NCBI GenBank assembly: GCA_964389675.1
Contig: CAYMEV010000012.1
Coordinates: 39,329-103,328, forward strand
Direction: 5' to 3'
Source of the DNA: an uncultured Candidatus Sumerlaeota bacterium
GTDB lineage: Bacteria; CAYMEV01
Length of the DNA stretch: 64,000 nt
The notes under the pieces were generated by a model, which was not told where the DNA came from, searched no databases, and saw nothing but the letters and a program-made list of their open reading frames with translations. Of the stretch, positions 38,277-39,985 are shown piece after piece. How positions within the stretch are numbered: the stretch's first letter is position 1; each line of letters starts with the position of its first letter. Position numbers and translations under genes: made by a program.

Positions 38277-38474
38277 ATGATACTAATGGAGGATAGAGTC
38301 GGTGAGCTTCTCAGGAGATACCCATATCTGGATGAGATTTTCTATAGCTTTACGGATAACCCGAATCTTGTTTTTGATGATGCCGACTACAGCTTGAGGG
38401 ATTTTGCAGAAATGGTCGGTGCAGACATTGAAGAACTTATCAAGGACCTTCAGGCTAAGATTGCAGGAAGATAA
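38277..38474 (+). CDS. Small hypothetical protein (DUF1858-like fold suspected, lacks Cys)
   Basis: 65 aa; divergently oriented from the HEAT-PilT gene, 50 nt upstream of the TMEM43 homolog; weak call. Confidence 0.3.
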   Translation: MILMEDRVGELLRRYPYLDEIFYSFTDNPNLVFDDADYSLRDFAEMVGADIEELIKDLQAKIAGR

Positions 38475-38524
38475 GATTATTTTTTTTATAAATTATATAA
38501 GCCAAATAAAAGGAGGTTTTCAGG

Positions 38525-39700
38525 ATGGCTAACGGATCTTTCACTACGACATCATCGCGAAGCTGGTTTTCAAGGATAAAGGAATCCATAAAGGGAATAC
38601 TTCTTGGGATTGTTCTTTTTGTTATTGCGTTTCCCCTTCTGTTCTGGAATGAGGGAAGGGCTGTAAAAACAGCCAAGGGCTTGAAAGAAGGGCTTGCATC
38701 TGTTGTGAGCATAGACCCGGGCAGAATTGATCCTCAGCATGATGGCAAGCTGGTGCATCTTTCAGGAGAAGCGGTAACCCATGATATTTTAGAAGACCCA
38801 ACCTTCCCGGTCTCATTGAATGCCATGAAGCTTAAAAGGGATGTGGAAATGTATCAGTGGAAAGAATCAACATCTTCCAAGACCAGGAAAAAGCTTGGAG
38901 GAGGGGAGGAAACAGTAACAGAATACAGCTATAGCAAAGTATGGAGCAATTCTCACATAAACTCCGTCAATTTTCAGGTTTCAGACGGGCATCAGAACCC
39001 GCCTTCAATGCTTTACGAATCTGAAAGCTGGACTGCAAATGATGTGAAAATTGGAGCGTTCAGCTTATCTCCTGGCCTGACAGGCAGGATTGATAATTAT
39101 GAGAACTATTTCATCGAGGATGATGATGAGAAGACTCTGTCTTCCAGTCTTTGGGAAGGCATAAAGATCAATAACGGGCTCTTTTATTATGGCAGTGACC
39201 CTGCAAGCCCGCAGATAGGAGATATGAAGATATCCTTCAGGTTTGTCGGTCCTAAACAGACAATCAGCCTCATTTCAAAGCAGGTAAAGGATACCTTCGA
39301 GCCGTATAAAACCAGCGTGGGAACTACAATAGAAAGGCTGGCCCCTGGTGTAGTATCTTCAGATGCCATGTTTGAAGCAGCTTTCAAGGAAAATACCATG
39401 ATGACATGGATATTGAGGATCGCAGGCTTTTTATTGATGTTTTTCGGGATATCGCTGATTCTTAAGCCATTATCAGTTATTGGCGATGTGGTCCCATTTA
39501 TAGGCTCGATAATCGGAATGGGAACAAGCCTGTTTGCAGGTATTATTGCATTAGTCCTTTCATTCATTACAATTGCCATAGGATGGATCTTTTACAGGCC
39601 AGTTCTGGGGATAATACTTCTCATAATTGCGGGAGGCCTCCTGTTTCTGCTGGTTTATCTGATCAGGGGCGCAAAAAGGAAGAAAGTAGTCGAAGCATAA
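38525..39700 (+). CDS. TMEM43/LUMA family (DUF1625) membrane protein
   Basis: 391 aa; strong motif-level identity to remembered eukaryotic TMEM43: FWNEGRAVKTAKGLKEGLASVVS, DVEMYQW, WIFYRP; N-terminal TM plus C-terminal TM cluster. Confidence 0.75.
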   Translation: MANGSFTTTSSRSWFSRIKESIKGILLGIVLFVIAFPLLFWNEGRAVKTAKGLKEGLASVVSIDPGRIDPQHDGKLVHLSGEAVTHDILEDPTFPVSLNAMKLKRDVEMYQWKESTSSKTRKKLGGGEETVTEYSYSKVWSNSHINSVNFQVSDGHQNPPSMLYESESWTANDVKIGAFSLSPGLTGRIDNYENYFIEDDDEKTLSSSLWEGIKINNGLFYYGSDPASPQIGDMKISFRFVGPKQTISLISKQVKDTFEPYKTSVGTTIERLAPGVVSSDAMFEAAFKENTMMTWILRIAGFLLMFFGISLILKPLSVIGDVVPFIGSIIGMGTSLFAGIIALVLSFITIAIGWIFYRPVLGIILLIIAGGLLFLLVYLIRGAKRKKVVEA

Positions 39701-39739
39701 AGACAGGGATTTAGGGCATCATGGACAGGCAGTTGAATA

Positions 39740-39985
39740 CTATTTTTGCTGCCTGTCATTTTTTGACTTGTAATAAACCTGGCCTGACTGTGTGTTGATG
39801 CGGATCTCAAGGTCCTTATTTGAAATGACCAGGATATTGCTGTCGTAATAGGTCATTTCAACGGGCGTCTGCCCATAATAGAGGTGGAATATAACATCAC
39901 CTATATCTTCCTTGGATTTTGTGCTGGACAATACTTTGTACCTGAGTTCCTTGTTTATCTCGATTATGTTCTTTAGATAATCCAT
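39740..39985 (-). CDS. Hypothetical small protein
   Basis: 81-aa ORF convergent with the TMEM43 gene; no recognisable motifs. Confidence 0.2.
   Translation of the reverse strand: MDYLKNIIEINKELRYKVLSSTKSKEDIGDVIFHLYYGQTPVEMTYYDSNILVISNKDLEIRINTQSGQVYYKSKNDRQQK

Follow-up and report, generated by a model that had tools for sequence, protein, structure and literature searches.

Within the window considered here, a 64,000-nucleotide stretch of contig CAYMEV010000012.1 from an uncultured Candidatus Sumerlaeota bacterium, the open reading frame (ORF) at 38525..39700 on the forward strand, which begins with ATG and codes for 391 aa, is almost certainly a chromosomal gene, single-copy and native in composition, whose product is a canonical TMEM43-family protein (PF07787, formerly DUF1625). 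Human TMEM43, also known as LUMA, is a membrane protein of the nuclear envelope and the endoplasmic reticulum (ER) and the product of a disease gene for arrhythmogenic right ventricular cardiomyopathy 5 (ARVC5), Emery-Dreifuss-like myopathy and auditory neuropathy, and its molecular activity is still disputed. The PF07787 profile is matched end to end by the bacterial product, with positions 1-250 of 250 aligned at residues 109-359 (E 3.6e-82; 275.9 bits against a cut-off of 23.3), and full-length identity to primate TMEM43 is 36%, which bears out the sequence-only reading of this gene as a bacterial TMEM43/LUMA (DUF1625) homologue.

The gene is a stand-alone unit with its own ribosome-binding site (RBS) and terminator. 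The former, AAGGAGG, is read from the sequence at 38510..38516 (forward strand), 8 nt 5′ of the ATG, and the latter is a terminator-like hairpin at 39724..39764 on the same strand, 24 bases past the stop codon, in which a 10-bp GC-rich stem (GACAGGCAGT/GCTGCCTGTC) is followed by ATTTTTT. The hairpin region folds with −22.1 kcal/mol for a 75-nt stretch (RNAfold) and overlaps the 3′ end of a convergent 81-aa ORF; it was overlooked by a consensus terminator scanner because its loop is long. A motif scan of the window gave a single copy of TMEM43. In addition, GC content (0.436) and GC content at third codon positions (GC3, 0.457) equal those of neighbouring housekeeping genes, such as the FtsH gene of the same window (0.439 and 0.471), and the gene is therefore regarded as native in composition. 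The remaining window is ordinary bacterial chromosome, with genes for ProS, MurA, FtsH, PFK, GDH, sigma-54 two-component systems and regulators, CheA and PilT. The protein matched no PADLOC or PHROG model and was found in no phage genome; none of the NCBIfam models matches it or either of the two small flanking ORFs described below, and a sequence search of the PDB gave no relative, its sole match (E 0.23) being due to chance.

The comparison with animal TMEM43 was made with two primate database entries, P0121, which is 100% identical to the human TMEM43 sequence used as query, and Macaca P0124 (97%); the same query also returned other vertebrate entries named ‘transmembrane protein 43’. In BLASTP, the window protein shares 36% identity and 56-57% positives with these two entries over 393-395 residues (E 2e-81 and 3e-80, respectively), in a collinear alignment that spans residues 8-386. 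The near-identical blocks that had been named for the eukaryotic protein were recovered on direct comparison with the primate sequences. The most conserved one, FWNEGRAVKTAKGLKEGLASVVS (residues 40-62; 38642..38710, forward strand), which covers the outer end of the first transmembrane segment (TM1) and the juxtamembrane helix in the alignment, is identical at 16/23 positions; DVEMYQW (38840-38860, forward strand) differs from the HVEMYQW of primates at one of seven (6/7 identical), and WIFYRP (39584-39601, forward strand) agrees at 5/6 positions with the WLFYRP of Macaca and at 4/6 with the WLFHRP of P0121. Far from being confined to the transmembrane segments, the similarity peaks outside the membrane, as identity to human TMEM43 reaches 60% in the juxtamembrane helix (45-59) and 37% (79/212) in the large loop domain (60-278), both exceeding the 28% of TM2-TM4. 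Thirty columns are invariant across 60 aligned sequences (49 bacterial and 11 vertebrate); the invariant positions include N42, E43, G44, L53, E55 and G56. All the family signatures are present in the window protein, namely NEGR after TM1, VEMYQW, the D-x-x-P of loop 2 and the W-x-x-Y-R-P between TM3 and TM4.

The sequence-only reading had called this conservation unusually strong. Strong it is (36%, E 2e-81), but it is not unusual, since all 121 close bacterial homologues have 31.4-38.6% identity to human TMEM43 (median 34.9%), and the window protein takes 34th place among them in identity (35.9%) and 5th place in bit score. In fact, the bacterial family is large. A homology search returned more than 2,400 significant matches, the top 120 of which are all PF07787 proteins of ~390 aa from bacterial genomes or metagenomes with 48-75% identity, several of them already named ‘TMEM43 family protein’. 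Likewise, a HMMER scan of 1.84 billion cluster representatives (50% identity clusters) yielded 6,087 matches at E ≤1e-3 and 2,125 at ≤1e-30, and a scan of species-representative genomes found 294 TMEM43 loci. The 80 loci retrieved, whose proteins are 45-54% identical to the window protein, come from at least 12 phyla and include Chloroflexota, Acidobacteriota, Planctomycetota, Desulfobacterota (cable bacteria included), Gamma- and Betaproteobacteria, Myxococcota, Verrucomicrobiota, Patescibacteria, Bacteroidota, Actinomycetota and Auribacterota.

The closest relatives of the window protein are 75%, 69% and 65% identical to it. For the FtsH of the same window (8903-10717, forward strand) the corresponding values are 85%, 79%, 73% and 66% in metagenomic sequences and 55-59% to the nearest named taxa (Syntrophorhabdaceae, Nitrospirota), and the cross-phylum identity of TMEM43, ~50%, lies slightly under the latter range. 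Bacterial TMEM43 proteins are, then, almost as constrained as FtsH, and the notable trait belongs to the whole family. PMC3198171 and PMC9307560 state that LUMA/TMEM43 is ‘notably also’ conserved in bacteria and credit this to Bengtsson and Otto 2008, and RefSeq/PGAP labels the plasmid-borne copies ‘TMEM43 family protein’. The window protein is a real, ordinary and already catalogued member of the family, and its conservation from bacteria to human had been published before. A search for literature on bacterial TMEM43-family/PF07787 proteins found no paper dealing with them, in agreement with the earlier remark that the family has no established bacterial function.

Some of the catalogued proteins, for instance WP_096873442.1 (Phaeobacter piscinae plasmid) and WP_011536664.1 (Ruegeria sp. 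TM1040), have family, length and architecture in common with the window protein and are likewise products of stand-alone genes. The plasmid-borne alphaproteobacterial forms, however, are a more distant subfamily, with 30-37% identity to the window protein, and are no closer to it than human TMEM43. Other members depart from the canonical length. Six proteins of 600-777 aa (P0241, P0242, P0005, P0245, P0246 and P0255) are nearly twice as long and give two PF07787 matches or three aligned stretches, which suggests a tandem duplication of the extracytoplasmic domain in one polypeptide. There are also C-terminal extensions on otherwise canonical members, with TPR (P0252, P0258, P0273 and P0277; 4/10 of the long forms examined), DUF533/TerB (P0364) or GYF_2 (P0294) domains, and these could hint at cytoplasmic partners or at roles in envelope stress. 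Additionally, the Thermoanaerobaculia metagenome-assembled genome (MAG) SMAG_U8840 has two TMEM43 paralogues, 87% identical, on separate contigs (L074 4295-5440 and L081 947-2089).

The predicted layout of the window protein comprises a cytoplasmic N-terminus, TM1, an acidic, beta-rich extracytoplasmic region of ~235 residues, TM2, loop 2, TM3, an outward turn, TM4 and a basic cytoplasmic tail of 10 residues. TM1 (residues ~22-44; 38588..38656, forward strand) has a hydropathy peak of 2.59 and falls within a model helix at 14-59. It is preceded by a basic stretch (residues 1-21) that is conserved at T7 (≥90% of sequences) and R17. The extracytoplasmic domain (60-278; 38702..39358, forward strand), which contains an OB-fold-like barrel in the model, includes DVEMYQW and holds 13/30 of the invariant residues. 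A long model helix (279-320) then carries the invariant N290, T294, W295 and R298 into TM2. In the C-terminal part (TM2, loop 2, TM3 and TM4; residues ~296-381; 39410..39667, forward strand), which is delimited by hydropathy and model helices, loop 2 bears D321-x-x-P324 (39485-39496, forward strand) and the turn between TM3 (334-357) and TM4 (359-381) is formed by WIFYRP, of which W354, R358 and P359 are invariant.

This layout is supported by several lines of evidence, and the view that the topology is shared with eukaryotic TMEM43 is upheld by the agreement of hydropathy, charge distribution and the AlphaFold model. Hydropathy places membrane segments at 18-47 and 291-384, and the loop between them has 27 K+R and 35 D+E. 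The termini, with 3 K/R and 1 D/E at the N-terminus and 5 and 1, respectively, in the C-terminal tail, are consistent with the positive-inside rule. The AlphaFold model, with an overall pLDDT of 88.8, has helices at 14-59, 279-320, 324-330, 334-357 and 359-390, and is beta-rich at 60-278. A beta-strand is also modelled at residues 5-12 (38537-38560), in the part predicted to be cytoplasmic, with a pLDDT of 64-70. The prediction agrees with Drosophila CG8111, a four-TM protein of the ER and nuclear envelope, both termini of which are cytoplasmic by experiment (roGFP data; PMC9307560). The likeness noted is one of topology; the fly residue Ser333 (human S358), which is needed for function in animals, is not matched by a conserved residue in bacteria. 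By contrast, the papers that describe TMEM43 as a channel draw the opposite membrane orientation (PMC11059273). Vertebrate TMEM43 (LUMA, ‘Gapjinc’, 400 aa) resembles the window protein in its length and in its arrangement of TM1, a large acidic loop and three further helices, but has a 9-residue insertion in the loop domain, ‘GLSGDDPDLGP’, that is absent from the bacterial proteins.

No solved structure resembles the whole window protein, and structure searches gave no match to any enzyme fold. The OB-fold domains that were matched, which include periplasmic YgiW/BOF, DUF3299 (PA4066) and CcmE, span approximately one third of the extracytoplasmic domain with 4-16% sequence identity and without a common motif, so that they represent likeness of fold only and not family membership. 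When the full model was compared with BFVD by Foldseek, eight viral proteins were matched with probability 1.00 (E 3e-10 to 6.5e-6, ~300 columns): A0A8S5PR85, A0A1X9IGF6, A0A5J6VKI3, A0A3G5ACS0, A0A1V0SLC3, A0A3G5AD21, A0A6N1NH03 and A0A3G5ACZ2. One is a ‘transmembrane protein’ of a myovirus and the remainder are ORFans from Klosneuvirus, Satyrvirus, Hyperionvirus, Tupanvirus and Megaviridae. These could represent distant viral TMEM43-like proteins, but most have only 211-285 aa (one has 452), identity is 10-16%, TM-scores on the query are 0.23-0.42 and the rmsd is large.

As regards genomic context, no gene accompanies TMEM43 recurrently. The gene-neighbourhood analysis proposed in the sequence-only reading, carried out on ~80 loci from the phyla listed above, did not disclose any recurrent partner. 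When every ORF lying up to 5 kb from TMEM43 at 83 loci was clustered by BLAST, the result was the same: the recurrent clusters 1-3 are shadow ORFs inside TMEM43 itself, and the largest genuine neighbour clusters cover 8 loci, all of them in related Desulfobulbaceae. Pfam tallies of the adjoining genes (61 upstream and 65 downstream) are flat, with any one family occurring at most 2-3 times.

We tentatively favour the view that the window protein, as a canonical TMEM43-family member, acts on its own as an oligomeric, cation-conducting protein of the membrane, with a periplasmic domain that would sense external conditions, and we regard this as possible rather than probable. That caution applies to the full statement, mechanism included: the homology, architecture, conservation pattern and autonomy of the protein are shown by the analysis, and its oligomerisation, ion conduction and gating are inferred. 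As there is neither a cytoplasmic domain nor a conserved gene partner, the function must be executed in the membrane or the periplasm, and since no neighbour recurs, it must be self-contained. The nuclear envelope, lamins, emerin, SUN2 and connexins, which form the setting of animal TMEM43, are all missing from a bacterial host; such partners cannot exist there, and therefore only an ancestral core function can be shared with the animal protein. Cation conduction is the only molecular activity that has been measured for any family member, and for this reason the bacterial protein is taken as a cation-conducting pore. Specifically, it would be a homo-oligomeric cation pore, or a pore-modulating subunit, of the inner membrane. 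The Asp and Pro of loop 2, together with an invariant ring of charged and aromatic residues at the outer membrane face (E43, R45, W295, R298, W354 and R358), would form the permeation path or its vestibule, and the periplasmic domain would sense an external condition, such as pH or a ligand.

The observations on which this proposal draws were made with mammalian TMEM43. The purified protein has been reported to give single-channel openings in bilayers, and the currents obtained by heterologous expression are cation non-selective, blocked by Gd3+ and lowered by low external pH (preprint 10.1101/2022.11.08.515259; review PMC11059273). According to the same sources, deletion of loop 2 abolishes the current, SCAM implicates D335, P338 and D342, and the R372X truncation, which causes auditory neuropathy, also abolishes it (10.1101/2022.11.08.515259; PMC11059273). 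Additionally, homo-oligomerisation of human LUMA was reported by Bengtsson and Otto 2008, as cited in PMC3198171. In the alignment, three human residues, D335, P338 and R372, have conserved counterparts in the window protein, which would favour conduction: D335 corresponds to D321 (conserved in ≥90% of sequences), P338 to P324 and R372 to R358, the last two being invariant.

Several points weigh against such a pore. The channel claim for TMEM43 is that of one laboratory, made in an unreviewed preprint, and there is no TMEM43 structure. Human D342 corresponds to S328 of the window protein, in a column that is variable in bacteria, and C354, reported to lie near the pore, to I340; moreover, loop 2 (321-330) is the part of the model with the lowest confidence (pLDDT 57). 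Judged from the alignment, TM2-TM4 are the least conserved part of the protein (28%) and the extracytoplasmic domain (37%) and juxtamembrane helix (60%) the most, which is unusual for a pore-former, and the C-terminal TPR, DUF533/TerB and GYF domains of some members point to protein scaffolding rather than conduction. Finally, knock-out flies and mice have no overt phenotype (PMC9307560).

The same conservation gradient, with the extracytoplasmic domain above TM2-TM4, favours the explanation that survives best next to a pore. Here, the protein would be no channel at all; the extracytoplasmic domain would be the functional part and the four helices would serve to anchor and oligomerise it, so that the protein would be an envelope scaffold or a handler of lipids or other ligands at the outer face of the inner membrane. 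That some other members are fused to cytoplasmic domains (TPR, DUF533/TerB and GYF) or have the loop domain in tandem duplicate fits this explanation, which also parallels reports of ‘scaffold’ and lipid-metabolism phenotypes for TMEM43 in animals. We judge it slightly less likely than a cation pore. A membrane-anchored periplasmic enzyme, for instance a hydrolase that would use invariant polar residues of the loop domain, seems very improbable: S147, H156, D91 and D233 are invariant or nearly so in that domain, which also has GH-x-NP and GD motifs, but the structure searches matched no enzyme fold and at least one close homologue (P0117) has Tyr in place of H156. We give hardly any credence to a horizontally acquired, mobile accessory or defence gene that would work with the neighbouring HEAT-PilT operon, FGE gene or small ORFs. 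In its favour, the family is represented on six plasmids, of which three are conjugative, transposase and integrase genes lie beside a few TMEM43 loci, some of the nearest family neighbours cross phylum labels and a 65-aa ORF is found 50 bp upstream on the same strand. Against it, there is no PADLOC, PHROG or phage match, the gene has native GC and GC3 values, the flanking genes are found with TMEM43 in no loci but those of three close relatives with ~20 kb of synteny, and nearest neighbours are mostly of the same phylum (39 against at most 24, several of the 24 being artefacts of labelling or binning).

Returning to the putative cation-conducting protein, its relation to the human disease residues can be mapped in part. 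The residue mutated in ARVC5, human S358 (fly S333), corresponds to V344 of the window protein, in a column that is variable in bacteria; S346, which aligns with human T360, provides a Ser/Thr two positions after that column. The useful by-products of the analysis are this mapping of disease and pore residues, the negative neighbourhood result and the OB-like periplasmic subdomain.

With respect to the origin of the eukaryotic protein, the window protein scores 243 bits against human TMEM43 and 176-234 bits against the alphaproteobacterial plasmid subfamily, which itself has 27-32% identity to vertebrate TMEM43. In a midpoint-rooted neighbour-joining (NJ) tree, the vertebrates, placed within overall bacterial diversity, are sister to the main bacterial clade, which includes the window protein, and the alphaproteobacterial forms fall outside. 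As evidence on origin this tree is weak, with vertebrates as the sole eukaryotes, bacteria as the sole prokaryotes and no support values. A bacterial origin of eukaryotic TMEM43 is compatible with these sequence comparisons. The broader proposal, in which the bacterial TMEM43 proteins would be cation channels of the inner membrane that act autonomously, with the OB-like periplasmic domain as their gate, and the main bacterial clade would be the source of eukaryotic TMEM43, we consider improbable.

If it were true, a bacterial orthologue would lead to a first structure and a first mechanism for the protein that underlies ARVC5 cardiomyopathy and dominant auditory neuropathy, and a ‘nuclear envelope’ protein would have begun as a channel of the bacterial envelope, the locus itself being one more member. 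Bacterial TMEM43 proteins are small and stand-alone and are found in cultivable Ruegeria, Phaeobacter, Methylobacterium, Desulfosarcina widdelii and Denitrificimonas caeni; being constrained as well, they offer a practical route to TMEM43 structure and mechanism. What value remains is that of the family, which offers a tractable model of a human disease protein, and not of the locus, to which the genomic context adds nothing.

The plasmid-borne members mentioned above belong to Phaeobacter, Ruegeria, Tritonibacter and Methylobacterium. The distant subfamily includes a conserved cassette of four genes (a hypothetical protein of 189 aa, TMEM43, and hypothetical proteins of 155 and 273 aa) that occurs on two replicons, plasmid pP13_b of Phaeobacter piscinae (L086 4353-7462) and a megaplasmid of Ruegeria sp. 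TM1040 (L088 4352-7465). One copy lies on a conjugative plasmid, next to its genes for relaxase and T4CP. The partner proteins in the cassette have no Pfam domain, so that the arrangement gives no clue to function. Elsewhere, a MAG labelled ‘Gammaproteobacteria’ (L017 916-2058) and another labelled ‘Bacteroidales’ (L018 3150-4292) have TMEM43 proteins that are 100% identical, and the protein of the latter also groups with other gammaproteobacterial copies at 77-80%; mis-binning of a MAG, rather than transfer, is the most likely explanation.

The immediate surroundings of the window gene are as the sequence-only reading had described them, with two small ORFs, a stand-alone FGE gene and a divergent HEAT-PilT gene. 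On the forward strand, a gene for an acidic protein of 65 aa (38277..38474) lies 50 bp upstream of TMEM43, and an FGE-sulfatase-domain gene occupies 40131..40937; on the reverse strand, a gene for a small protein of 81 aa (39740..39985) is convergent with TMEM43. The divergent gene (35734..38217, reverse strand) codes for an 827-aa fusion of N-terminal HEAT repeats and a PilT/T2SSE ATPase, and overlaps by 8 bp a gene for a canonical PilT of 355 aa (34674..35741, reverse strand), next to which is a TauE exporter gene. In three close relatives, synteny extends over ~20 kb and comprises UvrD, TauE, PilT, HEAT-PilT, the 65-aa ORF, TMEM43, the 81-aa ORF, FGE, a Bac_transf-like gene and Phosphodiest. 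The pair of HEAT-PilT and PilT is 72-82% identical in these relatives, with ~40% identity between the two ATPase domains.

Both small ORFs are conserved as proteins. The 65-aa product is 85% and 62% identical in relatives, with an invariant core, DDADYSLRDFAEMVGAD; 36/52 of the substitutions fall at third codon positions, and 31 codon changes are synonymous and 10 non-synonymous, a pattern that marks it as a real gene under clear purifying selection. It gave a sub-threshold match to DUF1858 (21.8 bits against 32.2), which is not accepted as an assignment, and no relative in the PDB. The 81-aa product is 87% identical in L001, L002 and L006, which is above the 75% of TMEM43 itself, with 39/54 substitutions at third codon positions, and has no family match in Pfam, NCBIfam, PADLOC or PHROG; its gene has decayed to a 43-aa remnant in L004 (11321-11452). 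Taken together, synonymous changes in the two ORFs exceed non-synonymous ones by ~3 to 1. They are real genes, found only in the lineage of the close relatives, and are not family-wide partners. At the ~76 other TMEM43 loci outside the three close relatives, no homologue of the 65-aa, 81-aa or HEAT-PilT proteins lies nearby, and a single locus has an FGE-domain protein, which is unrelated to that of the window. In view of this absence beyond close relatives, the FGE, HEAT-PilT and small-ORF products are rejected as functional partners of TMEM43; they are neighbours by descent only.

Directly 3′ of the FGE-domain gene there is a tRNA-Leu(CAG) gene (40988-41075, forward strand). It is overlapped by an ORF for a membrane protein (41036..41416; 126 aa, GTG start), the orthologue of which in L001 has 108 aa, and because of this overlap the membrane-protein gene probably starts further downstream.

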